Of a stretch of DNA of 48,963 bases, positions 27,370-48,926 are shown one piece after another; the stretch's first letter is position 1; every line of letters starts with the position of its first letter. The notes beneath the pieces were generated by a model. That model made no database searches. It was given only the letters and a program-made list of their open reading frames with translations, and was not told the origin of the DNA. The DNA lies in the NCBI GenBank assembly GCA_947305255.1, contig CAMZDE010000002.1, forward strand, positions 1 to 48,963. The letters run 5' to 3'. Source of the DNA: an uncultured Alphaproteobacteria bacterium. Its GTDB lineage: Bacteria > Pseudomonadota > Alphaproteobacteria > Rs-D84. A program made the position numbers and the translations under genes.

Positions 27370-27744
27370 TTATCTTATGCGTTTGATTTCCATACCGACA
27401 ACGTGTTCACGGTTCAATTCTTCGCGCGATACAAATTTGGTAATAATGTTCATCAATTCATCAATGTTTTGAAATCCAGAACGCTTAATATCGATTTTTT
27501 TAAACAAATTCTCAAAATCAGGCGCAACATGCATATTTAAAACTTCGCAGATAATATATTCGTCTGTGTTTTCAGCATCAAACAGTAAAAATTTGTCGCC
27601 AATTTTAACTTTTTTGCGTTTGTCGTCGTACGCGCGTAATTCAATGTCTTTTTGCCCAGATTTTATCATTTCAAAATATTTGTGCCGAACACTCATAGTG
27701 AACTGATACGTAATGTCAGATTGAATGTTTTTATCTTTTGTCAT
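27370..27744 (-). CDS. ASCH (PUA-like) domain protein
   Basis: 124 aa. KYFEMIKSGQKDIELRAYDDKRKKVKIGDKFLLF is the typical ASCH N-terminal beta-barrel pattern. Confidence 0.7.
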   Translation of the reverse strand: MTKDKNIQSDITYQFTMSVRHKYFEMIKSGQKDIELRAYDDKRKKVKIGDKFLLFDAENTDEYIICEVLNMHVAPDFENLFKKIDIKRSGFQNIDELMNIITKFVSREELNREHVVGMEIKRIR

Positions 27745-28116
27745 GAGATTGTTCCTTATGTTAATATTTTGACATTGTTACTTGTCTTTGACCAGTGATT
27801 AAACCATCGAGTGTCTTGATTAGTTTTGTTTTTTCTTTGTTTTATTACAAAATAGTAGAAAGCAGGATTGAAATCAATACAAAATAGGGATAAAATAGGC
27901 TCAAATAGAGAAAAAGGTTAGAGAAAACCAAATAAAAATCGCTCTTTTTGGGAACTATGTAATTTTGGGCACGTTTGTATAAACATCGGTCGAACAAGAG
28001 GTGTCTCGGATTTGCTTGCTTAGCTTTAGTAAAAATATTTCAAACCTAATACGACATATTCAGACAAAAAACTTTATTTTGTTTTGGTCAAGCATCAAAA
28101 CGGGCGTTTTAGATGC

Positions 28117-28144
28117 TTGACTTATTATATTTTTGAGCTAGAAT
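28117..28144 (+). promoter_or_regulatory. Sigma70-like promoter candidate for cysS
   Basis: TTGACT-16 nt-TAGAAT, 38 nt upstream of the cysS ATG. The -35 element is embedded in the 3' arm of a long hairpin (28087-28121). Confidence 0.45.
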
Positions 28145-28181
28145 CATAGGAGAAACAACACAAAAAATAGCGGTTATTACA

Positions 28182-29624
28182 ATGACAGAACAAATATCTT
28201 TTTACAATACGATGTCCAGAGCTATCGACAAAGTGGAACCAGTAGATGGCAAAGAAGTGAAAATGTATTGCTGCGGTCCAACAGTTTATAATTATGCCCA
28301 TATTGGAAATTTAAGAACATATGTTTTTGAAGATTTGTTGGCGAAAACAATTCGTTTGGCCGGTTATAAATTGAAACATGTTATGAATATAACGGACGTG
28401 GGACATTTAACCAGTGATGCAGATACTGGTGATGATAAAATGTTGCTAGCGGCCGAAAGGGAAAAAATGCAAGTGCTGGAACTTGCTCGTAAGTATGAAA
28501 AGGTGTTTTTCGATCATACCGCTGCTTTGGGAATAAATCGTCCTGATGTTGTTGCACGTGCTACGGAACATATTCCAGATATGATAGCTTTTGTAAAAAA
28601 ATTAGAAGAAAAAGGTTTTGCATACTTTTCTAACGGTAATGTGTATTTTGATACGTCTAAATTCCCAAATTATGGGCAATTATCTAAACAAAATCGCACT
28701 GAATTAAAACACGGTGCCAGAGTAGAGCAAGATGAAAACAAGCGGAACCCATCTGACTTTGTATTATGGTTTACAACATCAAAATTTGAAAATCAGGTAT
28801 TACAGTGGGATTCTCCGTGGGGGCGTGGCTATCCAGGTTGGCATATTGAATGCTCTGTTATGGCGATGAAATACTTAGGTGAGAGAATAGACATCCATTG
28901 TGGTGGTATAGATCATATTGCTGTTCATCACGAAAATGAAATTGCCCAAAGTGAGGCTTATTTGGGTCATAAATGGGTTAATTGTTGGATACATGCGGCT
29001 TTTTTGCAGATGAAAGATGGAAAAATGTCTAAATCAAAAGGTGAGTTTTTAACTTTGGATACATTGATAGCCAAGGGTTATAAACCAGAACACTACAAAT
29101 ATTTCTGCTTGACCTCTCACTATAAAACGTCTTCTAATTTTAGTTTTGATGCGTTAGATGCTGCTAAAAATGCTTACGAATCTTTGGTAAGCAAAATTAA
29201 AGAGCTTAAACAGTCTGTATCAGACAATAAAACCGTGGATATTGAATTAGAAAGTTCTTATATCAAGAAATTCAATAGCTTTATGTTTAATGATTTAAAA
29301 ACACCGCAAGCATTAGCGGTTGTTTGGGAAGTGTTGAGAAATCCAGCGATGCCACCAAAATCTAAACTGAATTTTATGGAACATACAGATAAAATTTTTG
29401 GTTTGTCGTTGGAAGGCATAATAAAAGAACGCGAAGCGGAATTGATGTTACCAGATAACATTTCTAAAATCATAGAACAACGTCAACAAGCTAGAATGGC
29501 GAAAGATTGGAAAAAATCTGATGAATTGAGAGATGTATTGCTTGATAAAGGGTATGGGATTAAAGATTTACCTAATAATCAATTCCAAGTATTTGCTATA
29601 AAAAAAAATTTAATTGAACGTTAA
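28182..29624 (+). CDS. cysS: Cysteine--tRNA ligase
   Basis: 480 aa. Class I motifs HIGN (YAHIGNLRTY) and KMSKS (GKMSKSKG), CGPTVY and WHIECS zinc/cysteine-site residues. Carries the ITDVGHLTSDADTGDDKM-type insertion. Confidence 0.95.
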   Translation: MTEQISFYNTMSRAIDKVEPVDGKEVKMYCCGPTVYNYAHIGNLRTYVFEDLLAKTIRLAGYKLKHVMNITDVGHLTSDADTGDDKMLLAAEREKMQVLELARKYEKVFFDHTAALGINRPDVVARATEHIPDMIAFVKKLEEKGFAYFSNGNVYFDTSKFPNYGQLSKQNRTELKHGARVEQDENKRNPSDFVLWFTTSKFENQVLQWDSPWGRGYPGWHIECSVMAMKYLGERIDIHCGGIDHIAVHHENEIAQSEAYLGHKWVNCWIHAAFLQMKDGKMSKSKGEFLTLDTLIAKGYKPEHYKYFCLTSHYKTSSNFSFDALDAAKNAYESLVSKIKELKQSVSDNKTVDIELESSYIKKFNSFMFNDLKTPQALAVVWEVLRNPAMPPKSKLNFMEHTDKIFGLSLEGIIKEREAELMLPDNISKIIEQRQQARMAKDWKKSDELRDVLLDKGYGIKDLPNNQFQVFAIKKNLIER

Positions 29625-29635
29625 TTTGTAAAAAA

Positions 29636-29660
29636 CGCACTTGATTTAGTGCGCTTTTTT
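29636..29660 (+). terminator. Intrinsic terminator after cysS
   Basis: CGCACT-tgattt-AGTGCG followed by CTTTTTT. Confidence 0.7.
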
Positions 29661-29683
29661 CTTGCCTATATGTCACGTACAAC

Positions 29684-29712
29684 AAAAAAAGCCGTCATCA
29701 GACGGCTTTTTT
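29684..29712. terminator. Bidirectional intrinsic terminator (second cysS terminator; also the terminator of the minus-strand peptide gene)
   Basis: AAAAAAA-GCCGTC-atca-GACGGC-TTTTTT. Confidence 0.75.
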
Positions 29713-29725
29713 ATTTTACAAATGA

Positions 29726-29839
29726 CTAATCATCGCTAGTGCAAGTACAAAAATTCGCTTCTTCAATAATCACAACCTGTTGAGCGGTTTTTTGCGTGGT
29801 TTGAGTTTTGTTTTTAGTGGTTTTAGTTTTTGTTGCCAT
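29726..29839 (-). CDS. Small peptide gene (37 aa), candidate RiPP precursor: MATKTKTTKNKTQTTQKTAQQVVIIEEANFCTCTSDD
   Basis: Hand translation of the minus strand: ATG at 29837-29839, SD AAGGAGA 6 nt upstream, stop at 29726-29728, terminator 14 nt downstream. Too short for the ORF track. Divergent from the radical-SAM operon. Confidence 0.6.
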   Translation of the reverse strand: MATKTKTTKNKTQTTQKTAQQVVIIEEANFCTCTSDD

Positions 29840-29986
29840 GATAATCTCCTTGGGTAGATTGGTTTGCACACTGTACACGGTACAATAGCATTACCGTTTT
29901 GTCAAGGCTATTATTACGTTAAAACTATTGATTTTTCTAAAAAATATTTCTAATCTGAACCGTGATAGGTTTTCAAGAGGAAGCGT

Positions 29987-30997
29987 ATGCATCTAAATGA
30001 GTTAACACATGTCACCTTTGCTATAACAAGAAAATGTAACTTATCTTGTATTTGGTGCTATGAAAATGCATCAAGAAATAGCAAAGAAGTTAAATTATCA
30101 GATGTTAAATCTGTTATTGATCAGTTGGCAAAATTACCTCGATTAAAAAGGCTTGTTTTTACGGGGGGAGAACCCTTTATGCATAGCAATATAAGGGAGA
30201 TTTTAGATTATTGTTTTGAGAAAAATATCAATCATGTGCACATAACGACTAATGCTACATTAGATATTGAGAAGGTTTTAAAAGATTATGTAGGTAAAAA
30301 TTTGTCGTTAAGTGTAAGCGTTGATGGTATGGAAGATGTGCATGATGCTATTAGAGGGAAGGGAACTTTTAACAAAACCATTTCAAATATTCAAAAAGCT
30401 ATTGCGTTGGGTTTTGCTGTAAGTGTGACAACAACGGTATCAAAAAATAATATTGAAGCTGCCGCAGCCTTGGCAGATTTCTTGAAAGAATGCGGAATAG
30501 TAAATTTAAAATTCCAAAGAATGCGTTCACTGGGCAAAGGTGCCACACAGAATGATTTGATATTGTCTCAAAAAGATAACAAGGTTCTCACAGAACGTAT
30601 TCTCAACATAAAAAAAGAAACGGTTGGTAAGATTGGTGTCGGTTATAAAGATCCATTTTTGAATACAATTGATTTAGAATATCTTGATAAGTATAAAGAT
30701 ATGCTAGATAGTTGTATTTGTGGCGGTTGTAGATGTGGTATGAGTTATTTGTTTATAACTGTAGACGGTGATGTGCACCCTTGTCCTTTCTTGAAAATCA
30801 AATTAGGTAATGCGTTTTCTGAGAACATAGGCGATATTTGGTTAAATTCTGAATTATTACAAGCTTTTAGGGTAAAAGAAAATTATAACAAATGCAAAGA
30901 TTGCAAGTTTTGGGGTGTTTGCCGCGGTTGCAGAGCAGAGGCATTTATCCATACCAAGAATATTTTTGGAGACGACCCCGGATGTTGGAGAAATTAA
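29987..30997 (+). CDS. Radical SAM enzyme with a full C-terminal SPASM domain
   Basis: CNLSCIWC (CX3CX2C) at residues 17-24. C-terminal CGMSYLFITVDGDVHPC (CX10GX4C), CKDCKFWGVCRGC and a final GCW. RBS AAGAGGAAG. Confidence 0.88.
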   Translation: MHLNELTHVTFAITRKCNLSCIWCYENASRNSKEVKLSDVKSVIDQLAKLPRLKRLVFTGGEPFMHSNIREILDYCFEKNINHVHITTNATLDIEKVLKDYVGKNLSLSVSVDGMEDVHDAIRGKGTFNKTISNIQKAIALGFAVSVTTTVSKNNIEAAAALADFLKECGIVNLKFQRMRSLGKGATQNDLILSQKDNKVLTERILNIKKETVGKIGVGYKDPFLNTIDLEYLDKYKDMLDSCICGGCRCGMSYLFITVDGDVHPCPFLKIKLGNAFSENIGDIWLNSELLQAFRVKENYNKCKDCKFWGVCRGCRAEAFIHTKNIFGDDPGCWRN

Positions 30998-31656
30998 CCC
31001 TTAAAGAGCAGAACGCAATTTCACAACTTGCTAAAACCGTTGGTACGGTGATTATGGTTATTGTTTACGGTTCCAGGTTGCACAAACTTAAAACTAATGA
31101 TATTGATGTCATATTTGTATGTGAGTCAATAACTAGCCTTGCCAAAATAAATACCGTAAATAATGAAATACTTGCAACTAGTGGGGTAAATATTCATCCG
31201 TTTATAATACCTTTGCACACGTTGATGTACAAGCTATCCTTGGGTGACCCACAGACATTGACATTTTTGAAATATGGTTTCATATTAAAAAATCTTTTGT
31301 TTACAAAGACATTTTTATCTGACTATATATCAAAATTGACCACAAAATCCGAAATTTATGAATTATTATTACAGAAATTGGATGATTGTTTGTTGAATAT
31401 AAAAAAATGTTTTAATTACAGGGATGCAAATTTTATTTTAATATCTATATGCCAATTGATTTGCAGAGATAACGGTTTTATTCCTCGCTTTCCAAATGGA
31501 GGTTTGTTTGAACAGGCGGCTTCATTATGCCCCAAACTAAGCTTTTTGATATTAGAAACAGCATCTGATTATAAAATAAACAAACGTTCATCTGAAAACA
31601 CAATTAAATTGATGGAAAAGCTTATTCAAAACTATAAAAACCTAAAGGGGTTATAA
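30982..31656 (+). CDS. Nucleotidyltransferase-fold (Pol-beta superfamily) protein with a helical C-terminal domain
   Basis: Start moved to MLEKLT, a 16-nt overlap with the upstream gene. VYGSRLHKLKTNDIDVIFV fits the G-S-x9-13-D-x-D minimal NTase motif. No HEPN Rx4-6H motif seen. Confidence 0.6.
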   Translation: MLEKLTLKEQNAISQLAKTVGTVIMVIVYGSRLHKLKTNDIDVIFVCESITSLAKINTVNNEILATSGVNIHPFIIPLHTLMYKLSLGDPQTLTFLKYGFILKNLLFTKTFLSDYISKLTTKSEIYELLLQKLDDCLLNIKKCFNYRDANFILISICQLICRDNGFIPRFPNGGLFEQAASLCPKLSFLILETASDYKINKRSSENTIKLMEKLIQNYKNLKGL

Positions 31657-32759
31657 TGGCTACTAAAAATACGTTTTTATTTTACGATAAGAATAGCAGA
31701 AAAGCCTTTGTCGCAAAAAACGTTCAAGGCACTTATAAAAATAATCCTGAATTGATGAACGAATTGGCAAAACACAACATTTCTGATGATAGTTTAAAAA
31801 ACGGTTCTGTTTCTGTGATAAAAGCAAATAAGAATTATTTTCAAGCTCCGCATCAAATAATGATAGAGCTTACAAAGAAATGTAATTTTAAATGTATTTA
31901 TTGTTGCATAGATTGTGAACATAATGTGTGCAATAACGATTTAACCCATGAAGAGTTTATACGGCTTATAGAAGATATTGTTAAACTGAAACCGAACATT
32001 GTGACATTTACTGGGGGCGAACCGTTTTTAAGGGAAATTACCCATAATGATTTATTTGATGCGATGGAAATATTAACAAATAATGGTATCAATTGTGAGA
32101 TATTTACGAATGGTTCTTTAATAAGTCGATATGCTGATAGAATAGGAAAGTTAAACATTCACAATCTGAAAGTATCTATTGATACTGTTATTGAAGCCGA
32201 GATGCATAAAATCAACCAGGTTATTGATCAACTGGAAAACGTCAAAAAAGGTATAGAGATTTTGACAAAAAACCACATTTCTTTTAGTGTGAATGCGGTT
32301 ATTTTAAAGCATAACTGTGATAATATTGATAAATTGATGGAATACTTATCAAAGCAAAGCATCAGAACTCTTGTCTTTATCAGAGCTTTACCACGTGGAG
32401 GTGGTGAACGCATCCAGCGAAATTTATTAACAAATACAGAATGGGAACAATTCATAGATAAAATATCTGGTCTTTCTAAAGAATACGGTTTTGATATGAT
32501 TGATAGTGGCAGTCATTCTTGCCCGCGTTGTAACATATTTAATACATGTGCTATGTGCAAAGCAGGAATTAGCTTTATGTTAATTAAACAAAATGGGGAA
32601 GTTTATCCTTGTGGATTTGCAACTAGTAAAAATATGGGCAATGTAAAGCAAAAAAATGTTGGTGAAATATGGAAAGATGCTGTTTGGAATGAATGTCGTT
32701 GCAACGGTGTGACGTGTATAACAAAAAGAAAAGATGTTATTACGTTGAAAAAAGTTTAA
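31656..32759 (+). CDS. Radical SAM enzyme with a ~70-aa N-terminal extension and a reduced (twitch-like) SPASM region
   Basis: The ATG overlaps the upstream stop (TAATG). CNFKCIYC (CX3CX2C) at ~residues 75-82. C-terminal CKAGISFMLIKQNGEVYPC (CX12GX4C), then only CRCNGVTC. Confidence 0.85.
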   Translation: MATKNTFLFYDKNSRKAFVAKNVQGTYKNNPELMNELAKHNISDDSLKNGSVSVIKANKNYFQAPHQIMIELTKKCNFKCIYCCIDCEHNVCNNDLTHEEFIRLIEDIVKLKPNIVTFTGGEPFLREITHNDLFDAMEILTNNGINCEIFTNGSLISRYADRIGKLNIHNLKVSIDTVIEAEMHKINQVIDQLENVKKGIEILTKNHISFSVNAVILKHNCDNIDKLMEYLSKQSIRTLVFIRALPRGGGERIQRNLLTNTEWEQFIDKISGLSKEYGFDMIDSGSHSCPRCNIFNTCAMCKAGISFMLIKQNGEVYPCGFATSKNMGNVKQKNVGEIWKDAVWNECRCNGVTCITKRKDVITLKKV

Positions 32760-32773
32760 GACCAGGTATTATT

Positions 32774-33538
32774 ATGAAAAGTGAATATATAGAACAGTTT
32801 ATTTGGGACAAAATTTTTTCCAAAAAGATTGCCAGTAAAAAATTATCTAATAAAAGACCGCAGCTTTATGGAAAATTGCTAAATGATGATACCATAGCAA
32901 TACTAAACGAGATATTAAAAGATAACAATCATATTTCTGTAATAGAGGCAGGTTGCGGTTCTGCTAAAAAAACTTTTAATTTAGCATTATCAAATACAAA
33001 CGTAAATCAAATCACAGCTTTAGATATATCTGCTCAGGCTTTGAATTATGCACGACAAATAACCCCCGATGCTCTTAAAAACAAAACAAAATATGTTCAA
33101 GCTAGTATTATGAATACTCCTTTTAAGGCTAGGTCTTTTGATTTGGTATGGAATTCTGGGGTCATAGAACATTATTCTGAAGCGGAAATAAAAAAGATTA
33201 TAAGAGAAATGTTTCGTATCACAAAAAAGAACGGCTATATCGTCGTTGCTATACCTAATATGAAAAATATTGCTGTTATAAAAGCTGCTTTTTTAGGATT
33301 ACCTTTGTGTAGAAAATATCTGAAGTTCATAAAAGGATATCGCAATACCACTGAGATTTTATATAAAGACAAAACAATCAAGAATATATTACAAGATACG
33401 TTACAAAGAGATGTTGTACTAAAATACGCTGGTGGAGCAGGGTTGATTGGGGTACCAGATTTTATTATCAAAGGCTTGTACAAATTCAGTAAAAATTCTC
33501 GTTTTTCTTTTATGTCATTTTTCATAGTAAAAAAATAA
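32774..33538 (+). CDS. Class I SAM-dependent methyltransferase
   Basis: Start at MKSEYIEQF. Motif I VIEAGCGSAK, post-I LDIS, and FDLVWNSGVIEH. Confidence 0.8.
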   Translation: MKSEYIEQFIWDKIFSKKIASKKLSNKRPQLYGKLLNDDTIAILNEILKDNNHISVIEAGCGSAKKTFNLALSNTNVNQITALDISAQALNYARQITPDALKNKTKYVQASIMNTPFKARSFDLVWNSGVIEHYSEAEIKKIIREMFRITKKNGYIVVAIPNMKNIAVIKAAFLGLPLCRKYLKFIKGYRNTTEILYKDKTIKNILQDTLQRDVVLKYAGGAGLIGVPDFIIKGLYKFSKNSRFSFMSFFIVKK

Positions 33539-33588
33539 TACCTCTTTGTAAAAGACGTATTATTTTTTAATTATTTGTGATAGATATA

Positions 33589-34656
33589 TTAACCGATAAA
33601 ACTAAAATCTGTTTTAGGAGTAATTTTATTTATCGTTTCAACCAATAAATTTATCGTAGATTGCACATCTTCAAACGAACACATTTCTGATGGAGAATGC
33701 AAATAACGACATGGGATACTGACCAGTGCAGAAACAACCCCACCACGAGACAATTGAAGTGGTTCAACATCCGTGCCAAATGGTCTGCCACTGGCTTCAA
33801 CCTGATAATCAATATTTTTTGTTTTCGCTGTTTTTTCCAACAGCTCAAACAATTTTGTGTTGATGTGTGGTCCGCGTGCAATCACCCCACCATTTCCAAG
33901 TATTACTTCTGCATCTGGAACTGAATCAGGTGTATCATTTGTAGGAATCACATCAACCGCAAACCCCACATCTGCTTGCGCTAAATATGCAGCAGTTTTT
34001 ATGCCGCGTACACCGACTTCTTCTTGTACAGAGGCGATTGCTTCTACTGCAACAGATAATTTTTGCTTAGACAACTTTCTCAAAACTTCTAGTGCAATAA
34101 ACGTACCGACTTTGTCATCACATCCACGGCAAGAAAAAGTGTTGTTTTGTAATTCTATGTACCCTTGATACAAAACCATTGAATCGCCAATTTCAACCAT
34201 TTTTTCTGCATCTTTTTTACTTGTGGCCCCTATATCTATAAACAAATCTTTTAATTTTGATGCAAGTTTGGTGTCTTCTATCTTGTGAATAGGTTTTTTA
34301 CCAACAACACCAAACACTAATCCTTTTCTGGTCTTTATCATGACCCGCTGACCTATTACAACCTGAGCATCCCATCCGCCAATTGCTCCAACTCGAAGAA
34401 AACCATCATCTGAAATAGTTCGTATTATAAGACCAATTTCATCACAATGTCCAACAATTACTATTTTGCGTTTTGCGTTTGGGTTAATTATAGCATGTGC
34501 AGAACCAACGGGGTCTACATAAACATTTTTAGTTATCTTTTTTGCTTCTTCAACCCAAGTTTTAACAATGTCTTGTTCGCATCCAGATGGAACAACCGTG
34601 CCTAACAGCTTTTTAAGAAATTCTTTATTTGATATTTGTTGTTTTTTTGTTGCCAT
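33589..34656 (-). CDS. M42 family metallo-aminopeptidase (glutamyl aminopeptidase / FrvX-YsdC-like)
   Basis: Start placed at MATKKQQ, behind the RBS AAGGA. VGHCDEIG, GCDDKVG, SVQEEVGVRG and YLHSPSEM are the M42 metal-ligand blocks. Confidence 0.82.
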   Translation of the reverse strand: MATKKQQISNKEFLKKLLGTVVPSGCEQDIVKTWVEEAKKITKNVYVDPVGSAHAIINPNAKRKIVIVGHCDEIGLIIRTISDDGFLRVGAIGGWDAQVVIGQRVMIKTRKGLVFGVVGKKPIHKIEDTKLASKLKDLFIDIGATSKKDAEKMVEIGDSMVLYQGYIELQNNTFSCRGCDDKVGTFIALEVLRKLSKQKLSVAVEAIASVQEEVGVRGIKTAAYLAQADVGFAVDVIPTNDTPDSVPDAEVILGNGGVIARGPHINTKLFELLEKTAKTKNIDYQVEASGRPFGTDVEPLQLSRGGVVSALVSIPCRYLHSPSEMCSFEDVQSTINLLVETINKITPKTDFSFIG

Positions 34657-35021
34657 CGACATTCCTTTTTTTGAAAACACAGAGTATAAATCCATACCTT
34701 TTTCGATTATTAAACAAAAAAAACGAACACGCAACTTTAATTTGTTATTATACTTCTTTTTGCGTAGTAAATATGTAGATTTTTTGTTTTATGGCTGTAA
34801 TTAGCCACAGAAAACACAAAAATATTAACAGACACACGGACTAAGATGTTGGTTCCCTGCGGTTTTTAAGAAATTATTTGTTGTGACGTACGGACTAGTC
34901 CGTATGTTTGAGTATATTTTTGGTAAAAATAGTTATTTTAGAAGTTTTATAAACAATCAATATTTTATCAAAATTCCGCAGAAATCCGTAGTGTTCCGCA
35001 TATATAATCTGTCCGTTTTTT

Positions 35022-35043
35022 TGACATACGGATTAACAGCAAC
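35022..35043. repeat. 22-nt exact copy of the tRNA-Asn-derived att junction (identical to 41837-41858)
   Basis: TGACATACGGATTAACAGCAAC occurs at both positions. It spans the tRNA-derived ...ACAG plus the island-side CAAC. Confidence 0.6.
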
Positions 35044-35367
35044 AGTTCTAGTGTCAAAAAAATCGGCTGTAATATGCAGAAATCAGGGATTTTTATTGTG
35101 TACTGTTGTATAAAAATGGAAAGTAGTATGCAAATATGTACATTTTTAGATTGGTCAAAAACAGTATTCAATAGTATAAAAAAGAGTACATTATATACAT
35201 TCTCACGCAACGAAATCGTGTGAGAGAGTATGTTTCATTTTTAACGATATCGTGAACGATTTCATAAACGATATTGTTACGATTTAGTTAATCAAAATCA
35301 GTTGCTAAAACACCGATTTTATACTAGGATTAAAATAGAAAAAAATAATAAAACAACGAGGTATAAA

Positions 35368-35494: not shown

Positions 35495-36145
35495 ATGGAA
35501 GTATTTCTATCGACGTTTTTTGGTGCATTGGCGGCATTTTTATGTTCTGCTGTTTATGAATGGTTTAAAAATAGAACTCGACGCCAAGAATTGCTGACAA
35601 CATATTTTCATAATTTATTTACCGCTTTGCGTAATTTGACAATATTTGCAAATAATGCTCAGAATACATTGACCCAAGTAAAGATAAATCCAAATTATTT
35701 ACGATTTCCACCAATCAAAAATATTCAATTTGACTTCCATGAAGAAGATCTAGCTTTTGTGCAAAAACACCATGATTCCTTTTTTGATTCGTTAATTCAA
35801 TTGAAAATAGAATTAAACACAATGCATGAACTTGGTGAATTATATAAAGAAACAAGAGAAATACAATTTTTATACGATATTCACAATCGTATATTTGCTC
35901 TCGCTTGGCAAATAGTTATTACAATGCAGAATGTTAACAGCTATATGAAAAAGTATTATAAGACGGATTTGACAACTAAGCCAATAACAGATGGTTGGAA
36001 TAACGTGGATAAACAGTGTGACGAGTGGTTTGAAATTTTAAAAACATGGTCAGATCAAGAATTGGTTAAAGTGATAAAGAATAGTATAAAAACGATAAAA
36101 GAATCTTGGCCTATCGATTTTGGAATGAAAGAAGTGAATAAATGA
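35495..36145 (+). CDS. Hypothetical protein with an N-terminal TM helix (216 aa)
   Basis: Start at MEVFLSTFFGALAAFLCSAVYEW, behind GGAGA. The rest is helical with no recognised domain. Its stop overlaps the ASCH gene start (ATGA). Confidence 0.5.
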   Translation: MEVFLSTFFGALAAFLCSAVYEWFKNRTRRQELLTTYFHNLFTALRNLTIFANNAQNTLTQVKINPNYLRFPPIKNIQFDFHEEDLAFVQKHHDSFFDSLIQLKIELNTMHELGELYKETREIQFLYDIHNRIFALAWQIVITMQNVNSYMKKYYKTDLTTKPITDGWNNVDKQCDEWFEILKTWSDQELVKVIKNSIKTIKESWPIDFGMKEVNK

Positions 36146-36513
36146 CAACAATACTACTATCTATTAAACCAAAATTTGTTGCAAAAATATTTGCTGGTGA
36201 AAAACATTTTGAATTTAGAAAGCGCATACCTAAACATTCGGTAGATAAATTGATAATTTATAGTTCTTCGCCGGTATGTGAAGTAATGGGAGAAGCCGAA
36301 ATAGAAAAAGTCTTGGTTGATACCCCAGAAAATATATGGAATAAGACAAAACATCAGTCTGGAATTGATTCAAAATTCTTTTTCGAATATTTCGAAAGTA
36401 AAAGAGTCGCATATGCGTACAAATTAAAAAATATTAAAAGATACGTTCAGCCAAGAAAACTTAGTGATTACGGTTTAAAAACTGCGCCACAATCATTTAG
36501 TTATATTAAATAA
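36142..36513 (+). CDS. ASCH (PUA-like) domain protein
   Basis: LLSIKPKFVAKIFAGEKHFEFRKRIP...LIIYSSSPVCEVMGEAEI...AYAYKLKNIKRY is the canonical ASCH pattern. Confidence 0.75.
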   Translation: MTTILLSIKPKFVAKIFAGEKHFEFRKRIPKHSVDKLIIYSSSPVCEVMGEAEIEKVLVDTPENIWNKTKHQSGIDSKFFFEYFESKRVAYAYKLKNIKRYVQPRKLSDYGLKTAPQSFSYIK

Positions 36514-36582: not shown

Positions 36583-38046
36583 ATGGAAATAGTAGCCAAG
36601 CAACACAGGGTGAAAAATATGGGGGGGGTTTATACCCCATTCAGCATCGTGCAAGAAATGCTGGATTATCTGGCTTTTAATGGCACGGATATCTTATCAA
36701 AACATATAATGGAAAACAGTTGTGGTGATGGCGCATTTTTGTCCGAAATAGTACGCAGATATTGTGATGCGTTTGTTTCTATTGCAAATAATGATTTAAG
36801 CCGTTTGAAACATGATTTAGAAACATATATTCATGGTATTGAATTAGATAAGACTGAGTGCACAAAATGTATAAAACGTTTAGATACTATTGCTCTTCAA
36901 TATGGTATACAAAATGTTGTGTGGGATGTTATGAATGAGGATGCTTTAACTGTAAACAAATACGATAACAAGATGGATTTTGTTGTCGGGAATCCACCTT
37001 ATGTTAGAGTTCACAATTTGGAAAATTATGATTTAGCAAAAAAGTTTTCGTTTGCACAAGAGGGAATGATTGACTTATATCTGGTTTTTATTGAACTTGG
37101 CTTAAAGCAACTCAATAAAAGCGGAAAAATGTGTTTGATTACTCCGAGTTCCTTTATGACCAGTAAATCTGGTAAAAATTGCAGAGCGTGTATAAATAAA
37201 AACAAAAAATTATCAATGGTTGTCGATTTAGGTCAAGAACAAGTGTTCGACGGTATATCGGCATATACGGCCATTACTTTATTTGATAATGGACTAACAC
37301 ACAATGAGATTCGGTATGTAGAACATAGTACACAGGACAGTTTTAATTTGCCATATGATACAGTTTTTAAGCATGGTACGATGTCCTTTGATGATGAAGA
37401 CACGTTGGGGTTATTGTCGGATATAGATTCTTTTTACAAAGATCAGGTAAAGCGCAGCATAGTTGTAAAGAATGGTTTTGCTACATTGGCAGATACGTGT
37501 TTTATGCAAGATTTTGAATCATCAGAAAAAATTTATATTGATGTCGTAAAAGCATCTACTGGCAAGTGGACAAAATGCTTGTTCCCATATGATTTTCCTG
37601 GTGTGCCTATGGAAGAAGCTTTTATAAAGCAAAATTTTATGTCCGCATACACACATTTGCAATCATTTAAAGATAAATTAGAAAAACGAGCCATTGATTC
37701 TGCTGGGCATTGGTATCTGTTTGGAAGAAGCCAAGGAATCAAAGATGTTTTCAAAAATAAAGTATCTATTAACACGTTAATTAAAGATGAAAGCAGTATA
37801 AAACTAATAAATGTTCCTGCCGGATCAGGTGTGTATAGTGGTTTATACATATTGTCAGATTATAGTTTTGATGATATAAAGCGTGTTATTTATGACCCTA
37901 AATTTATAAAATATGTAAAAGCATTAAAGAAATATAAAAGTGGTGGATACTTTACATTTTCTTCGCTAGAATTGGAAAAGTATTTGACCTATATGTTAAA
38001 AGGAGATACACAAGATGCAAAACGTCAATTGCGCCTTTTTGGATAA
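36583..38046 (+). CDS. Type II N6-adenine DNA methyltransferase (gamma-class, Eco57I/TaqI-like)
   Basis: Motif I ENSCGDGAFL and motif IV VVGNPPYVRV, with a long C-terminal target-recognition region. Confidence 0.87.
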   Translation: MEIVAKQHRVKNMGGVYTPFSIVQEMLDYLAFNGTDILSKHIMENSCGDGAFLSEIVRRYCDAFVSIANNDLSRLKHDLETYIHGIELDKTECTKCIKRLDTIALQYGIQNVVWDVMNEDALTVNKYDNKMDFVVGNPPYVRVHNLENYDLAKKFSFAQEGMIDLYLVFIELGLKQLNKSGKMCLITPSSFMTSKSGKNCRACINKNKKLSMVVDLGQEQVFDGISAYTAITLFDNGLTHNEIRYVEHSTQDSFNLPYDTVFKHGTMSFDDEDTLGLLSDIDSFYKDQVKRSIVVKNGFATLADTCFMQDFESSEKIYIDVVKASTGKWTKCLFPYDFPGVPMEEAFIKQNFMSAYTHLQSFKDKLEKRAIDSAGHWYLFGRSQGIKDVFKNKVSINTLIKDESSIKLINVPAGSGVYSGLYILSDYSFDDIKRVIYDPKFIKYVKALKKYKSGGYFTFSSLELEKYLTYMLKGDTQDAKRQLRLFG

Positions 38047-38731
38047 AGTGAAAGAATCTTTTCGATTGTATTTGGATACAGGTGCCCGTAGTAATGAAAA
38101 GTTAAAGCCTATTCATTCTTTTATAGCGGATGCATTAAAGCAAGAGCTGAATGATCCTGAGCTAACTTTTTGTTCTTTAAGACCAGGACAGCGCGGTGGC
38201 GAAAAATCGGTTGCTGGTAGATATATGGATAAGAATGTCGATATTGCGGTTTGTAGAGGGAATACTGTTCTAGGGGCTGTAGGTTTTAAGTTCGTAATGA
38301 GCAATTATAAACAAAATTCTAATAATTATTTTGAAAATATGCTAGGTGAAACAGCTAACATCAGATGTAATAGAATTCCGTATTTTCAAGTTTTAGTTTT
38401 GTTAAAAGAATTACCTTACTATGATAATAGTGGGAGAATTACGAGAACAGAACATATAAATGAACACAATCTGCATAAATATATTAAGCTGTCCGAAGAC
38501 AATATTGAAACCTTTTTTCATACACCAACAAAGACATTGATTTATGTGGTTAGTTTGTCTGAATCTTTATCAGATCATCATATTGCAAACAAAGCACAAT
38601 ACAACGAGTTCTTTAGAGATAAAGATCTGAATGTAGATAACGAATTTAATGATCTTTTCCAATCGGGTGTTGTAATTAACGATTTCGCAAAGTTTATCAA
38701 AAAAGTCGCAAGTTATATCAACAGTATTTAG
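38015..38731 (+). CDS. Probable cognate restriction endonuclease (PD-(D/E)xK-like)
   Basis: Overlaps the methyltransferase 3' end by 32 nt. VDIAV...AVGFKF resembles a D...(E)xK core, although G replaces the acidic residue. The assignment rests mainly on position. Confidence 0.45.
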   Translation: MQNVNCAFLDKVKESFRLYLDTGARSNEKLKPIHSFIADALKQELNDPELTFCSLRPGQRGGEKSVAGRYMDKNVDIAVCRGNTVLGAVGFKFVMSNYKQNSNNYFENMLGETANIRCNRIPYFQVLVLLKELPYYDNSGRITRTEHINEHNLHKYIKLSEDNIETFFHTPTKTLIYVVSLSESLSDHHIANKAQYNEFFRDKDLNVDNEFNDLFQSGVVINDFAKFIKKVASYINSI

Positions 38732-38770: not shown

Positions 38771-38869
38771 GCGGCCATTTGGAATAATTTGCGCTGGATG
38801 CGGCGGAGTAACCATGTTTGCCGGCAGGTTAGGTTAGCATTGTGTGTTATGTAGATAGTATTTTCTAAT
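38771..38869 (+). repeat. GC-rich repeat R1 (~99 nt)
   Basis: Aligns with 41200-41288. An exact 17-mer TGCCGGCAGGTTAGGTT lies at 38819-38835 and 41238-41254. Shared ends are GCGGCC..TTTG and ATTTTCTAAT. Confidence 0.6.
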
Positions 38870-38891
38870 GCAGGACTTGGTATGATAGACA

Positions 38892-39494
38892 TTATTGTAT
38901 AATTGAAATAAATTCACCTTTGGGAGCAAAGTCGGTGTTCTCATCTATAATCAATGGTGTATATTGTTTGTTGTCTGATACCAGTGCTGCAAAGTTGTCG
39001 CTAATATATTTAAAACGTTTAATTTTAAATCCAGAGTTATATCTGCAGAAAATAATTCTGTCATCATTTGGAATAACACCTTCTGGAATCTTTTTAAATA
39101 AAAGTAGTGAGCCATCAGGTAAATCTGGTTCCATAGAATCGCCTTTGACCGAAACCAACATTAAGTCTTTTGGATCATAATTTATCAAAGACGCTTTTAC
39201 GGGGATGGTTGTTAAACCATTTTCTTCATCAATAAAACTATCGTTTGAGCCAGCACGAGCATCGCCAATGTATAAAATATTGATGGTGTCACATGCTTTA
39301 TCGTTTACGAATTTATATGTTTTATTTTCTGTTTTTCTTAATTGTCCAGAATTAACAAATCGTCTTAAATGATATAAAACAACAGATGTGTACTTTTTTG
39401 GGTCCAACTGCAATTCGTCAATCGTTTGTGACAGTGTAAAATCGCAATCAGAATGTTGTTTAAAAAAACGCAAGATTTGTTCTTTTAAATTCAT
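38892..39494 (-). CDS. S24 (LexA/phage-repressor type) peptidase-domain regulator with an N-terminal winged-helix domain
   Basis: Ala-Gly cleavage-site candidate ARAGSN, catalytic Ser in KGDSMEP and Lys in FKIKRF. The N-terminal 70 aa are wHTH-like. Confidence 0.78.
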   Translation of the reverse strand: MNLKEQILRFFKQHSDCDFTLSQTIDELQLDPKKYTSVVLYHLRRFVNSGQLRKTENKTYKFVNDKACDTINILYIGDARAGSNDSFIDEENGLTTIPVKASLINYDPKDLMLVSVKGDSMEPDLPDGSLLLFKKIPEGVIPNDDRIIFCRYNSGFKIKRFKYISDNFAALVSDNKQYTPLIIDENTDFAPKGEFISIIQ

Positions 39495-39561
39495 ATTTGC
39501 CCCTTCTCACCATAAATTATAACATGTTTTTTATGAAAAACAATAGAAATAATTAAAATTT

Positions 39562-39612
39562 TTCTATAAAAATATAGAATTGTGTTGACAATGTGAAAAA
39601 AACTGATATAAA
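39562..39612 (+). promoter_or_regulatory. Operator-like inverted repeat plus a sigma70 promoter for the MBL operon
   Basis: TTCTATA-aaaa-TATAGAA (39562-39579) lies immediately upstream of TTGACA (39585-39590)-16 nt-TATAAA (39607-39612). Confidence 0.5.
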
Positions 39613-39646
39613 ACGTACGTATTAACAATTAACAAAGGAAAGAAAG

Positions 39647-40573
39647 ATGTCGATAGTTAAATCTTTATCAGTTGGTGAAGGCGATATGTTTTATATCCGC
39701 CATAATTCAGATAATTTTACTATAATAGATTGTTGTGTTGAAGAAGAATGGCACAAACAGGTTGTGGAAGAGTTAGAAAACGCAGCTTCTGGAAAAATAA
39801 TAAAGCGTTTTATTTCTACACATCCCGATGACGACCATATAAGGGGATTAAAAAAATTATGCAAGGATTTTGAAATTCCGAATTTTTATTGCGTTGCGAA
39901 CAAGGCTCTAAATCCAGATGGGGAAGAAGATTTTGATATGTATTGTAAATTACGAGACGGATCTTCGTGCTTTTATTTGGAACAAGGTTGCTCACGCAAA
40001 TGGATGAACTTAAATAGCAATCCTGGGGATGACGAACAACGACAAAGTGCGGGTATAAATATATTATGGCCGGTTGTTAAAAATGAAAAATATCAAGAAG
40101 TATTAAAGGCTGTAAAAGACTGGCAAGATCCCAATAATATGTCGCCGATAATAAGATACGAAGCGGAAGGTAAAAAGTCATTTATATGGTTTGGAGATAT
40201 GGAAAACTCATTTCAAGAAAAAATCAAAAATGAAATAAAGTTACCAAGAACAGATGTGGTTTTTGCGCCGCATCATGGACGTAAATCTGGGCACTTGGTA
40301 AGTGAATGGTTGCAGGAATTAGAACCGAAAGTGATAATTGTTGGCGAGGCTCCATCTGAGCATCTAGATTATTACCGCGGATACGACACGATTACACAAA
40401 ATACGGCGGGTGACATAACATTTGTTTGCGAAAATGGTCAAATAGATATTTATGTTGGCGAAAAAGATTATGACCCAGATTGCACAAAATTGAAAAATCT
40501 TGAAAAACCACTTAGCTTGGTAAATCATCGATACAATCCGAAATACGGGTATTATGTTGGAACAATAATATAA
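39647..40573 (+). CDS. MBL-fold metallo-hydrolase (ComEC C-terminal-domain-like)
   Basis: STHPDDDHIRGL (HxHxDH-type motif) and VFAPHHGRKSG. Confidence 0.78.
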   Translation: MSIVKSLSVGEGDMFYIRHNSDNFTIIDCCVEEEWHKQVVEELENAASGKIIKRFISTHPDDDHIRGLKKLCKDFEIPNFYCVANKALNPDGEEDFDMYCKLRDGSSCFYLEQGCSRKWMNLNSNPGDDEQRQSAGINILWPVVKNEKYQEVLKAVKDWQDPNNMSPIIRYEAEGKKSFIWFGDMENSFQEKIKNEIKLPRTDVVFAPHHGRKSGHLVSEWLQELEPKVIIVGEAPSEHLDYYRGYDTITQNTAGDITFVCENGQIDIYVGEKDYDPDCTKLKNLEKPLSLVNHRYNPKYGYYVGTII

Positions 40574-40584
40574 AGGTCGACAAT

Positions 40585-41103
40585 ATGGAATTCAAAATAC
40601 CTTTTTATAATGTGATAAACATTTTATTTGTCGGACTGGTTTTTAGTGGTTTGTGCGTATTCCTATTCCCAGAAATAAGCGGTTATGCCTTTAACGTACT
40701 TGGCCGTATTAACAACCAGGTGTTTGATATTGTTGTTGTTTTAACGCTGGGGTATGAAATGGGCTTAATTTTGAATTGGATTGCATCACTTGTTGTTGAA
40801 CCAATTTTGATTAACAAAAAACCACTAAACAAGCGTTGCTGGGTTTCGCGTATTTTTCAAATCAGTTGGAAGAGTTATGCCGACTACCAGAAAGCAGAAA
40901 ACGACAAGTTGAACATGTTGGTTCGCGAAATGAATGTTTCCAGAAATCACATGACTTTATTTGGTGTAATTTTGATAATAGCATGTATCACGTCGCGTTG
41001 GACTGTGGTTCTTTGTTTGTTGCCAATGATTATTTTGTTTTATTGTGCATATAAAAAACATGCAAAAAAAATTGTTGATCGTATAGAAAATGCCTTAAAG
41101 TAA
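40585..41103 (+). CDS. Hypothetical integral membrane protein (172 aa, 3-4 TM helices)
   Basis: Hydrophobic segments FYNVINILFVGLVFSGLCVFLF, IVVVLTLGYEMGLILNWIASLVV and LFGVILIIACI..VVLCLLPMIILFY. Lies 11 nt after the MBL gene. Confidence 0.55.
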   Translation: MEFKIPFYNVINILFVGLVFSGLCVFLFPEISGYAFNVLGRINNQVFDIVVVLTLGYEMGLILNWIASLVVEPILINKKPLNKRCWVSRIFQISWKSYADYQKAENDKLNMLVREMNVSRNHMTLFGVILIIACITSRWTVVLCLLPMIILFYCAYKKHAKKIVDRIENALK

Positions 41104-41199
41104 TGTTTTTTTACATCAAGCCCGAAGAACATATCTAATCGTCGATAAACATAAATATGAACCGTATGTTGGTGCACTTTGTGTTAGATTTGGAGTAAG

Positions 41200-41288
41200 G
41201 CGGCCGTTTGAGTCGGGTGTGGCGTAGCAACCACGTCTGCCGGCAGGTTAGGTTGCCATTGTTTGTTCTGCGTATGGCATTTTCTAAT
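41200..41288 (+). repeat. GC-rich repeat R2 (~89 nt), direct copy of R1
   Basis: See R1. Contains the palindrome CTGCCGGCAG inside a GCAACC/GGTTGC stem; R1 has TAACC/GGTTA at the same place. Confidence 0.6.
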
Positions 41289-41806
41289 TCGTGTAATGAT
41301 CGGCATGCTGCGAAATAAAGCATAATAAAATCGGTCTTATTACTGGGTTCAATTTCTCGAAAATGTTTGTACTTCATAGACAATCCTTTTAAGGTTGTAG
41401 CATTCATCAATATCTTTCGGCGAAAGTCCAGCCTTTTAAAAAAGTACATATTTGCATCCTACTTGTTAAACTTCCAATATAATTTTTAAGTGTTTTCAAT
41501 AGGTTATAAAATGCCGACATACGAACTGCACGTCCGTATGTCAGTAAATAAAATCGCTGGAAGCCTTGCTGAGTCTGGGTTTCAGAAAATGTATACAAAA
41601 AAGTACATGTATGTAGTCCGTGTGTCGCATAAGTCATAATAAAATCGCTTAAATCCTTTGTTTGCTTGGTGTTGATGCGTTTTTTGGTGTTTTTTTGCGT
41701 GTACAAATATGTACTTTTTTACCAAAATATGACTTTTGTGTACCTTTTATACCGGAACAAGTTGCCGTAGCAAAAGTAAAGAAAAACCCCAGAAATCTGG
41801 GGTAAA

Positions 41807-41854
41807 TCGTGGCTCGGGCAACTGGACTCGAACCAGTGACATACGGATTAACAG
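41807..41854 (-). repeat. att direct repeat: displaced 3' half of tRNA-Asn (anticodon loop to CCA plus 3 nt), with its own terminator at 41783-41806
   Basis: 48/48 identity with 48879-48926. Confidence 0.85.
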
Positions 41855-46578: not shown

Positions 46579-47472
46579 TTACGAATTTTTCCAAAAATCA
46601 CGAATTCGTTTCAGATTATGTTTGTTATTGAAATATGTTATAAACGCATTTATTTGTCTGCGGGACAAACCAAAATCTTTATTCAGGTCAGATTTTATGT
46701 CAGCAGTTCTTGTGTATTGTTTGCCAGATATTTCAAGATGTTCTGCAACAAAATCAAATCCAATATTATCCCTGTTTGCCAATCCACACAAATGCTTGTT
46801 ATGGAATTGAAGCACAGATTTAAATGCGGAAGTGATTGCGAAGTTGTCGCATTTACAAGTGGTTTTTCTAATGCCAAGAATATACGGAACAAGAAAGAAT
46901 ATAACCGCTGTGAAAATTTCATCTGGATATGCACCAAATGCGCTGAAAAAACTTGGTCGCATAAACAGGGCTGTTTCAAATGGAATATAATGCGATGGTT
47001 TGTATGGGTCTTCGGTCTTTCTGGAACTCACGACACGTTGTGCATAAGTGTTAGGGCCAAATTTTATCTTTCTTCTCTCATAGTTTGCATTTTGATGGGC
47101 TCGGGCATTTGCCAAATGTTCGGCAGGGGCCTTTTGTTTGTAAAATTCAATAAAAGCACGTTCCAAATACCAAGGAAATAGATTAACGCATATATTTTGG
47201 TGCTCTTCACTGGGAATATATTTTTCAATTATTTCAAGACCTATTTTTATCAGTTTGTTCAATCTGATTAACTGTGTTTTGGTTATATTGGAATAATCAA
47301 AGTTTGGGAATAAATACCCACCAAGTTTGTTCAATATTTCGGCATAACTGCATTTTTTCCTGGGATACAAATAAGAAAATGTCGGCATCAAATGGGTTTT
47401 GACATTATATCCAACCTGATTTTGAAAATCACTTTTTCTTAATGGTAAAAACTTGAATGGAATGGTGTTCAT
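46579..47472 (-). CDS. Hypothetical island protein (297 aa)
   Basis: Long ORF whose start overlaps the integrase stop (ATGA). No recognised motif. Confidence 0.5.
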   Translation of the reverse strand: MNTIPFKFLPLRKSDFQNQVGYNVKTHLMPTFSYLYPRKKCSYAEILNKLGGYLFPNFDYSNITKTQLIRLNKLIKIGLEIIEKYIPSEEHQNICVNLFPWYLERAFIEFYKQKAPAEHLANARAHQNANYERRKIKFGPNTYAQRVVSSRKTEDPYKPSHYIPFETALFMRPSFFSAFGAYPDEIFTAVIFFLVPYILGIRKTTCKCDNFAITSAFKSVLQFHNKHLCGLANRDNIGFDFVAEHLEISGKQYTRTADIKSDLNKDFGLSRRQINAFITYFNNKHNLKRIRDFWKNS

Positions 47473-48545: not shown

Positions 48546-48878
48546 TTTTTCTTTCCTTTGTGTTTGTCTGACTAACAGGGTCAAACAATGTCTTTCAATT
48601 CTGCTTCGCTTCGTCTTGTTTTTCTGACAATAAGAATCACAATCCGTCTGTCAATATAGTGCAACAACGCAGAATTTCAAGGGTTATTGTGTGTCCCATT
48701 TAATTCTTGGGACACTGGTGGGATTTGGAAAACAAAACTTGCCGCAAATCCGATGGTTTTGTGCGCTGGTTGAATGTGAATTATGTTGTGAATTTTTATA
48801 TTCGTTTATCTGGTGTGTCCCAAATGTGTCCCAAACACATAAATAAAAAAAGCGGGAATCTGCTGAATCCCGCTAAAT

Positions 48879-48926
48879 TCGTGGCTCGGGCAACTGGACT
48901 CGAACCAGTGACATACGGATTAACAG
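48879..48926 (-). repeat. att direct repeat (within the intact tRNA-Asn)
   Basis: 48/48 identity with 41807-41854. Confidence 0.85.

Follow-up and report, generated by a model that had tools for sequence, protein, structure and literature searches.

We analyzed a 48,963-nt stretch of DNA (hereafter, the window) from an uncultured Alphaproteobacteria bacterium (GenBank assembly GCA_947305255.1, contig CAMZDE010000002.1). It carries a ~7-kb module that very probably directs the biosynthesis of a ribosomally synthesized and posttranslationally modified peptide (RiPP) of an undescribed family, modified by two radical S-adenosylmethionine (rSAM) enzymes and a nucleotidyltransferase (NTase). Four plus-strand genes form the modification cassette: rSAM-A (29987-30997; 336 aa), an NTase-like gene encoding a protein of the Pol-beta fold (30982-31656; 224 aa), rSAM-B (31656-32759; 367 aa), and a gene for a class I S-adenosylmethionine-dependent methyltransferase (32774-33538; 254 aa; Methyltransf_11, E = 2e-19, with a further match to Methyltransf_25). 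The NTase gene overlaps rSAM-A by 16 nt and has GGAGA 8 nt upstream of its start at 30982, a start (MLEKLT) that homologues P0001 to P0003 match; its stop shares the sequence TAATG at 31656 with the start of rSAM-B. These overlapping junctions couple it translationally to both rSAM genes, and only 14 nt separate the rSAM-B stop from the methyltransferase start. An earlier note on positions 29987-34656, made from the sequence without database searches, had described this tight packing, and we confirmed its open reading frames (ORFs) and junctions.

Divergent from rSAM-A lies the minus-strand precursor peptide gene (29726-29839), which encodes 37 aa (MATKTKTTKNKTQTTQKTAQQVVIIEEANFCTCTSDD) and has AAGGAG 7 nt upstream. 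Between the two genes is an intergenic region of 147 nt (29840-29986), with GAGGAAG ahead of the rSAM-A ATG. On its other side the precursor gene is arranged tail to tail with cysS, the plus-strand gene for cysteinyl-tRNA synthetase (CysRS; 28182-29624; 480 aa; tRNA-synt_1e, E = 6e-102), which marks the left end of the module. In the gap between them we read from the sequence a bidirectional intrinsic terminator (29684-29718; AGCCGTC-ATCA-GACGGCT between A and T runs), and a terminator scan assigned cysS a terminator of its own at 29636-29653. A minus-strand gene for an M42 aminopeptidase (33589-34656; 355 aa; Peptidase_M42, E = 1e-80) closes the module on the right and converges on the 3' end of the cassette, as the earlier note had stated. 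A scan of the window for promoters gave promoter-like matches no more often than chance; we infer that the 147-nt divergent region is the promoter region. In an Rfam search, tRNAs were the only matches, and the module gave neither a riboswitch nor a T-box.

Precursor peptide family

The window precursor consists of a Lys/Thr-rich N-terminal part, the sequence IIExxNFCTCT, and a 3-residue tail (...VVIIEEANFCTCTSDD). A profile search based on four early examples returned 11 protein clusters with 10 distinct precursor sequences; adding the window peptide and that of L099, a very distant high-GC locus, brought the total to 12. FCTCT is invariant in all 12, which come from at least five cassette lineages, and is preceded by IIExxN in 11 (the L099 peptide has VVHTDE there); I24, I25, E26, and N29 are nearly invariant in the alignment. 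The flanks of the motif vary: the N-terminal 20 to 45 residues are unrelated between clades, and the tail that follows FCTCT is 1 to 12 residues long and ends in D, G, T, K, Y, V, or C.

At the DNA level, the FCTCT-coding pattern occurs once in the window, against 0.01 expected; the 18 fetched loci that hold it, namely, cassette loci and a cassette-deletion variant (L014), have it once each. It is absent from all 90 other fetched loci; among these are L005, L098, and L100, cassette loci whose contigs are too short to reach a precursor gene. In 596 Gb of species-representative genomes, just two contigs carry the IIExxNFCTC pattern, both from metagenome-assembled genomes (MAGs) and both with the cassette, and a scan for the motif in DNA of the JGI metagenomes and viral contigs gave no match. 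No NCBIfam model matches the precursor, which is unrelated to SCIFF or other named families. Because FCTCT is invariant and the motif is confined to cassette loci, we conclude from these comparisons that the small ORF is a real, conserved gene tied to the cassette. The peptide to which the earlier note alludes is encoded outside the range that the note covered, on the minus strand at 29726-29839.

The deletion variant L014 (Logan SRR22585850) retains the precursor gene and has lost rSAM-A, NTase, rSAM-B, methyltransferase, and M42 genes. In this natural deletion the M42 upstream region (35277-34644, reversed) is fused to the precursor ORF (29839-29553); the join is a 13-nt microhomology (ATGGCAACAAAAA) common to the start regions of the precursor and M42 genes. 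Extra small, unannotated ORFs occur in two other loci: one of 54 aa in L008 (9816-9980), between NTase and rSAM-A, with no FCTCT and no Pfam match, and one of 59 aa in L017 (633-812), between the precursor gene and rSAM-B, also without FCTCT.

Conservation of the cassette

The trio of rSAM-A, NTase, and rSAM-B is orthologous in six cassette types of distinct sequence: the window type, a 78% type, L002, L008-L013, L017, and L099. L100, a distant cassette from a bacterium resembling the candidate phyla radiation (CPR), represents a seventh type with all three genes (rSAM-A partial), and the L098 contig shows only the rSAM-B/NTase pair. The trio co-occurs in every locus long enough to show all three genes, and NTase homologues with readable context (L002-L005, L008-L013, L017, L098, L099, and L100) all lie beside rSAM/SPASM genes. 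The genes run A-NT-B in L002, L100, and the window type; L008 and L017 have B-NT-(small ORF)-A, and L099 has A-NT-(690-aa rSAM)-B. The NTase gene adjoins rSAM-B or, in L099, lies one rSAM gene away from it, and usually overlaps a neighbor.

Other parts of the cassette are exchanged. The window Methyltransf_11 enzyme is confined to the window type and the 78% type, while L008 and L017 have a nonhomologous FkbM-type Methyltransf_21 at the methyltransferase position. The 690-aa rSAM of L099 has a weak, subthreshold B12-binding match; as a putative B12-rSAM it is a possible third methylation route. On the contigs of L002 and L100 we saw no methyltransferase gene. M42 occurs in the closest relatives only. 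In L002, genes for an M17 aminopeptidase and a YmdB phosphoesterase separate rSAM-B from the precursor gene, and L099 has a PmbA/TldD peptidase with an ABC exporter, a pairing typical of exported RiPPs, and an upstream ThiS-like protein with a PP-loop ATPase. Genes added in L099 and L108 (L099 coordinates 3626-4915 and 6787-8859) also include a HAD hydrolase, and the PP-loop ATPase possibly serves sulfur transfer.

These comparisons bear on several claims of the earlier note. Its proposal of a peptide-modifying, RiPP-type cassette is upheld, and the co-occurrence on which it had made this proposal depend is seen in other genomes. The cassette of four genes that it drew is constant in rSAM-A, NTase, and rSAM-B, but its methyltransferase is swapped or absent. 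The aminopeptidase, which it took either as a leader-trimming enzyme or as unrelated, is found only in the nearest relatives, yet lies within the same transferable block as the cassette (see below).

The nearest genomes are two MAGs from uncultured Alphaproteobacteria of the gut: RGIG6362 (JAFXFG01), from sheep rectum, with proteins ~98 to 99% identical and 98.6% nucleotide identity over the block, and BRZ_FN bin24 (CALXLG01), in which the NTase is 79% identical. We found no family member in plasmid and phage collections, and a scan of metagenomes with an rSAM-A profile gave only generic rSAMs at 22 to 23% identity.

The nucleotidyltransferase

The window NTase has the active-site motif G30-S31-x8-D40-I-D42. 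The earlier note had called it a minimal NTase with GS-x11-DID; the fold assignment stands, but the spacing is x8 and the protein has two domains, with the NTase domain at the N terminus and ~120 aa of helical domain at the C terminus in the AlphaFold2 (AF2) model (predicted local distance difference test [pLDDT] score, 80.8). Residues E9, G30, S31, R32, D40, D42, D89, Q158, and P171 are invariant in 9 homologues, down to 20 to 25% identity; orthologues of the window protein are 27 to 79% identical to it. Foldseek matched the model to 3c18, ANT(9), AadA, ANT(4'), Hailong HalB, and MNT with a probability of 1.0, at template modeling (TM) scores of only 0.3 to 0.45. The L008 and L017 orthologues exceed the Pfam cutoffs for Polbeta and NTP_transf_2; of the Pfam families that the earlier note had named for checking, Methyltransf_11/25 was confirmed in the window, as was Radical_SAM plus SPASM for both rSAMs, and NTP_transf_2 only in these two orthologues. 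No NCBIfam model matches the NTase. The family is very small: among 1.84 billion representatives, a profile scan picked up only 10 proteins at E ≤ 1e-3, and a word-indexed search with the NTase returned three clusters.

Because the catalytic residues are invariant at 20% identity, their conservation argues for a working active site, and the protein shows the features expected of an ANT/KNTase/MNT-like Pol-beta fold. It shares with ANT/KNTase enzymes and MNT antitoxins the architecture of an NTase domain plus a helical domain and the active site G-S...D-x-D...D; MNT AMPylates a protein side chain, a further likeness to what the cassette NTase may do. The only NTase homologue that we noted in a RiPP cluster is PsmN, which tailors a RiPP in the pseudomycoidin lasso-peptide cluster. 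The cassette NTase differs from ANT, MNT, and PsmN in that identity is only 10 to 15% and there is no HEPN partner; it is coupled to rSAMs rather than to a lasso cyclase and kinase. The remark in the earlier note that an NTase-fold protein is an unusual partner for rSAM enzymes proved apt, and this partner is constant across cassettes.

The NTase-like protein could instead be a noncatalytic, leader-binding partner that presents the peptide to rSAM-B, comparable to the Ocin-ThiF-like partners of YcaO; the product would then be a plain cross-linked, methylated peptide of the sacti-/ranthipeptide kind. Its tight translational coupling to rSAM-B in all lineages would suit such a role, as would a C-terminal helical domain that, in the model, could bind peptide, and the finding (below) that rSAM-A has no RiPP recognition element (RRE) and rSAM-B no recognizable one. 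However, invariance of G30, S31, D40, D42, and D89 at 20 to 25% identity is not expected of a degenerate scaffold, and we consider this alternative improbable.

Radical SAM enzymes

Both rSAMs exceed the cutoffs for PF04055 and PF13186, the Pfam Radical_SAM and SPASM domains. In rSAM-A, the cluster-binding C17/C21/C24 and seven SPASM cysteines (248, 266, 303, 306, 312, 315, and 333) are invariant in five orthologues, as expected from the CX3CX2C at residue 17 and the complete SPASM pattern that had been read from the sequence; as also noted then, the protein has no N-terminal extension. Its orthologues in L006, L002, L008, L017, L099, and L100 are 34 to 94% identical. In rSAM-B (orthologues 25 to 86% identical to the window protein), the alignment shows invariant C76/C80/C83 and only C301, C319, and C354 as auxiliary cysteines. 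Because only these three further cysteines are conserved, rSAM-B is, by its sequence, twitch-like at the family level and has a potentially open iron site. This bears out the earlier reading of a partial, twitch-like auxiliary region behind an N-terminal extension; the latter is ~65 aa long in the window protein and 65 to 105 aa across all orthologues.

That the extension is a PqqD-like RRE, as was also proposed, gained no support from sequence. PF05402 found nothing at E ≤ 0.1 in the isolated extensions of the window, L008, and L017 proteins; no PqqD match appeared at E ≤ 0.01 in full-length rSAM-B of L098, L099, and L100; and hhalign of the extension against the RRE regions of the related maturases P0011 and P0038 gave a probability of ~0.1%. 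The AF2 model of rSAM-B (overall pLDDT, 86.4) folds the extension with a pLDDT of 80 to 88 as β4-11, β16-24, α31-39, α44-48, and β52-58, that is, in the order beta-beta-alpha-alpha-beta rather than the canonical beta3-alpha3 of an RRE. An RRE here is thus unproven and lacks sequence support. The best Foldseek match of the whole model was SkfB, a twitch-domain peptide maturase, followed by MoaA, SuiB, BlsE, and CteB. Of the RRE-bearing enzymes among these, SuiB aligned over 337 to 359 columns of the 367 residues, and the alignment with CteB was longer and gapped.

Comparison with known systems

Neither rSAM reaches the cutoff of any curated NCBIfam equivalog. For the heme and heme d1 enzymes (AhbD, AhbC, NirJ, NirJ1, and NirJ2), the scores include 140.9 (rSAM-A) and 119.9 (rSAM-B) for AhbD against a cutoff of 500, 146.2 (rSAM-A) for NirJ2 against 500, and 106.6 (rSAM-A) for NirJ against 515. 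The two proteins score 125.2 and 92.5 with MftC (cutoff, 265), so that a mycofactocin system is not indicated, and 91.1 and 105.2 with StsB (NF045574; 625). The remaining scores are 77 for PqqE (381), 57.4 for rSAM-B with the anaerobic sulfatase-maturating enzyme model (TIGR03942; 349), 86.4 for PapB (NF047865; 340), 46.3 for SkfB (TIGR04403; 300), and 62.2 for rSAM-B with viperin (NF038283; 180). A PADLOC pVip match of ~69 bits covers only the generic rSAM core, and MoaA, DynA, and other named rSAM subfamilies are far below their curated cutoffs. The rSAMs therefore do not fall into a characterized subfamily such as AhbD/NirJ, the sulfatase maturases, MftC, or PqqE, which had been named as the outcome that would speak against a RiPP cassette.

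We also searched the full-text literature and found no match for the motif, for an rSAM-plus-NTase RiPP, or for a CysRS-linked biosynthetic gene cluster, and the earlier statement that this gene combination fits no described RiPP class holds. Judged by the genes and their conservation, the cassettes represent a genuine rSAM RiPP family, rare and not described so far, whose nucleotidyltransferase partner is unusual. Several points weigh against this conclusion: the chemistry of the cassette is a proposal; the window NTase scores below the Pfam cutoff (17.6 versus 26.9), and its Foldseek TM scores are modest (0.3 to 0.45); neither Pfam nor hhalign detected a canonical RRE; all known family members come from MAGs or short metagenomic contigs; and the window module encodes neither an exporter nor a dedicated leader protease.

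Among the closest known systems is the maturation of sacti- and ranthipeptides (SkfB, CteB, StsB, and PapB), where rSAM SPASM/twitch enzymes likewise lie beside a short precursor that contains Cys. SkfB ranks first among the structural matches of rSAM-B and among the PDB sequence matches of rSAM-A; StsB and PapB are among the model matches. In contrast to those systems, the FCTCT cassettes have no recognizable RRE, devote two rSAMs to a 5-residue motif, and include an obligatory Pol-beta NTase.

We propose how the module most likely works. The substrate would be the 37-aa product of 29726-29839, with FCTCT, following IIExxN, as the modification site, the variable N-terminal part as leader, and the short variable tail probably dispensable. 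rSAM-B would most likely engage the IIE/FCTCT segment through its N-terminal minidomain and open auxiliary cluster, and each of the two rSAMs would catalyze a single radical step at the Cys/Thr pairs, with thioether cross-linking (sactionine or ranthionine type) as the default expectation. The NTase could then transfer a nucleoside monophosphate to a core hydroxyl (Thr32, Thr34, or Ser35), and the clade-specific methyltransferase could cap the product. Leader trimming may fall to an aminopeptidase (M42 here, M17 in L002) or to a TldD-type protease (L099).

Radical SAM RiPPs rank among the main sources of new peptide chemistry, and the combination of an invariant five-residue Cys/Thr core, two rSAMs, and an obligatory, intact Pol-beta NTase has not been described before. 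Should the NTase act on the peptide, enzymatic peptide nucleotidylation would be carried out by a fold new to rSAM RiPP maturation. The family occurs in uncultured gut Alphaproteobacteria, CPR-like bacteria, and mobile elements, which puts it out of reach of culture-based discovery.

Mycofactocin and pyrroloquinoline quinone (PQQ) biosynthesis offer a second comparison. rSAM-A is an RRE-less SPASM protein of ~335 aa that aligns over its full length with the MftC and PqqE models, and those pathways also use a small peptide with a C-terminal modification site and have a peptidase and a methyltransferase nearby. They differ from the FCTCT cassettes, which have no MftB or PqqD, contain a second rSAM and an NTase, and encode a precursor with neither a Val-Tyr end nor a Glu/Tyr pair. 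An alternative is that the peptide, as in mycofactocin or PQQ biosynthesis, serves as an expendable scaffold from which an intracellular cofactor or small molecule is made, with FCTCT excised after modification. Such a fate would fit the very short invariant motif with its dispensable flanks, the aminopeptidases adjacent in two clades, the resemblance of rSAM-A in length and best matches to RRE-less MftC/AhbD-type enzymes, and the absence of an exporter or immunity transporter from the window module. Yet L099 encodes TldD and an ABC exporter, dependent oxidoreductase genes are lacking, the MftC and PqqE scores are far under cutoff, and the cassettes are patchily distributed and lie on mobile DNA (a low-GC island in the window; a relaxase and transposases in L008); this alternative has little probability.

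Linkage to cysS

The earlier note was right about the RiPP-type cassette, its NTase partner, and the lack of a described class, was not borne out on the RRE and the constancy of the methyltransferase, and overlooked the linkage to cysS. The cysS gene and the cassette belong to one block, which reaches from ~100 nt ahead of cysS to a point just upstream of M42: L001 shares only window positions 28068-35049 (98.6% identity), and L109 and L006 share only 28083-34761 (86%). In all three genomes the block has unrelated flanks, and these flanks have a mobile or accessory look. GC content at third codon positions (GC3) is 0.24 to 0.31 in the block genes (0.287 in cysS; 0.242 in M42), versus 0.36 to 0.46 in most genes of the first 26 kb and ~0.40 in core genes. 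This low GC3, together with the block boundaries, suggests that the window cysS is island-borne. M42 is lost together with the cassette in L014. Because both lie within the same ~7-kb transferable block, cysS (as immunity gene) and M42 (in processing) probably serve the pathway; for M42 we infer a role in detoxification or in trimming of the peptide.

Three lineages, the window type, L002, and L100, have cysS adjoining the cassette. In L002, two different, outward-reading cysS 5' ends flank it (1-219, minus strand; 5735-5932, plus strand); both have intact N termini, they are 72% identical at the nucleotide level, and their terminal 30 nt, where the assembly stops, are identical. L100 has a full-length CysRS gene on the same strand (2690-4081), starting 2 nt past the rSAM-B stop, after a gap of 1 nt. 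The encoded synthetases resemble those of their hosts: window CysRS is 64 to 66% identical to that of other gut Alphaproteobacteria and L100 CysRS 58% identical to that of Saccharibacteria, versus 43% between the two. Because the CysRS genes are host-like rather than cotransferred, we conclude from these sequences that the linkage did not come with the cassette by inheritance and that it originated on at least two occasions. Other cassettes are not so linked: L008-L013 have no cysS within 8 kb, and L099, which carries the ABC exporter, has none in range. Conversely, related gut Alphaproteobacteria have neither M42 nor the cassette beside cysS, among the matches listed.

The window cysS is a candidate self-immunity or pathway-linked copy, and we considered what this could say about the product. 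Microcin C and the tiarins combine, as here, a peptide with a nucleotide-transferring enzyme; aminopeptidases are associated with them, and the linked aminoacyl-tRNA synthetase (aaRS), CysRS in our case, matches the invariant Cys of the core. According to the tiarin preprint, the aaRS gene in a RiPP gene cluster confers immunity and its specificity matches a core residue, with activation by aminopeptidase; the tiarin paper mentions neither CysRS nor radical SAM. The differences are substantial: the cassette NTase has a Pol-beta fold, unlike the E1/ThiF-like MccB; microcin C and tiarin systems lack rSAM enzymes; and nucleotidylation and aaRS inhibition by the latter are proposed by analogy. A microcin C-like system was rejected, as no module protein has a ThiF domain (Pfam) and the precursor has no C-terminal Asn.

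A more specific version of the RiPP interpretation would thus make the product a Trojan-horse inhibitor of CysRS, a peptidyl-nucleotide whose nucleotidylated, Cys-bearing core, once aminopeptidases have trimmed the N-terminal residues, mimics cysteinyl-adenylate while the adjacent cysS, a resistant or additional copy, protects the producer. We regard this as rather unlikely to be correct as stated. It would account for the cysS genes at cassettes of the window type, L002 (with its two 5' ends), and L100, for host-like synthetases whose linkage arose at least twice, and for a cysS with the block boundaries and low GC3 of the cassette; it accords with the presence of an NTase and an invariant Cys in the core, with L099 carrying an ABC exporter in place of cysS, and, by analogy, with the tiarin precedent of an aaRS immunity gene and aminopeptidase activation. 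On the other hand, the L008-L013 clade has no nearby cysS, the window and L002 linkages may reflect common descent, and window CysRS keeps all canonical motifs. Furthermore, a nucleotidylated Thr beside Cys is no obvious isostere of Cys-AMP, and a second cysS of the window genome was not among the matches listed, in a search whose motif is too universal and which missed known loci.

Self-immunity against a CysRS-directed product is, by analogy, the most attractive, though unproven, reading of the cysS linkage, and the adjacency hints at a new CysRS-directed antibiotic. It would be a bolder and unlikely claim that the FCTCT cassettes make the first natural-product CysRS inhibitors, rSAM-tailored and NTase-nucleotidylated Trojan horses with linked cysS immunity; if true, they would form a class of peptide-nucleotide antibiotics biosynthetically unrelated to microcin C and tiarins. 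The repeated linkage yields a testable hypothesis on the target, CysRS, and target-linked biosynthetic gene clusters lead most directly from a sequence to its product's mode of action.

Genomic setting

The module lies in a low-GC stretch of the window at 27 to 44 kb (GC, 0.30 to 0.37; GC3, 0.20 to 0.36), compared to a GC of 0.38 to 0.50 in most of the first 26 kb. The stretch is located between tRNA-Lys (26423) and an integrase element at tRNA-Asn, and its composition would fit acquired islands arranged as a mosaic. A 51-nt direct repeat (98% identical; 41804-41854 and 48876-48926), which overlaps the 3' half of tRNA-Asn (48882-48957), brackets this ~7-kb integrative element, with genes for a tyrosine integrase (47469-48584), an AAA_25 protein, and a PEGA-domain protein; L001 carries a copy of the repeat just left of its cysS block. 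A second set of direct repeats, 82 nt long and 78% identical, brackets 38788-41288, which contains an S24 peptidase gene and two genes that match PDC-M48B/A, a PADLOC candidate defense system (E = 9e-124 and 2e-13); the genes between these repeats are at 38892-39494 (minus strand), 39647-40573, and 40585-41103. Before them in the window are an Eco57I-type N6-adenine methylase gene (36583-38046) and, overlapping its end, an ORF of unknown function (38015-38731).

These neighbors, the Eco57I-type methylase, the PDC-M48 pair, and the integrase, could suggest that the cassette is itself an antiphage defense operon, with viperin-like rSAM nucleotide modifiers and an NTase, or a set of unrelated genes, the small ORF being incidental in either case. 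Both rSAMs match PADLOC pVip at ~69 bits, and HalB and MNT are among the fold matches of the NTase. But the pVip matches reflect the generic rSAM core, the NCBIfam viperin score is 62 versus a cutoff of 180, and it is the peptide gene, not the flanks, that is conserved with the enzymes across lineages, so that hardly any credence can be given to a defense operon or chance assembly. We retain the interpretation of the module as a RiPP pathway.

The L008-L013 cassettes also lie on mobile-looking DNA, with genes for a relaxase with MobC/NikA, DDE and Y2 transposases, an ELLD/CW_7 lysin, ThyX, and dUTPase, and with ~1 kb of apparently noncoding DNA between the precursor gene and rSAM-B. In the window, two ASCH-domain genes (27370-27744, minus strand, and 36142-36513) flank the cysS-M42 block.

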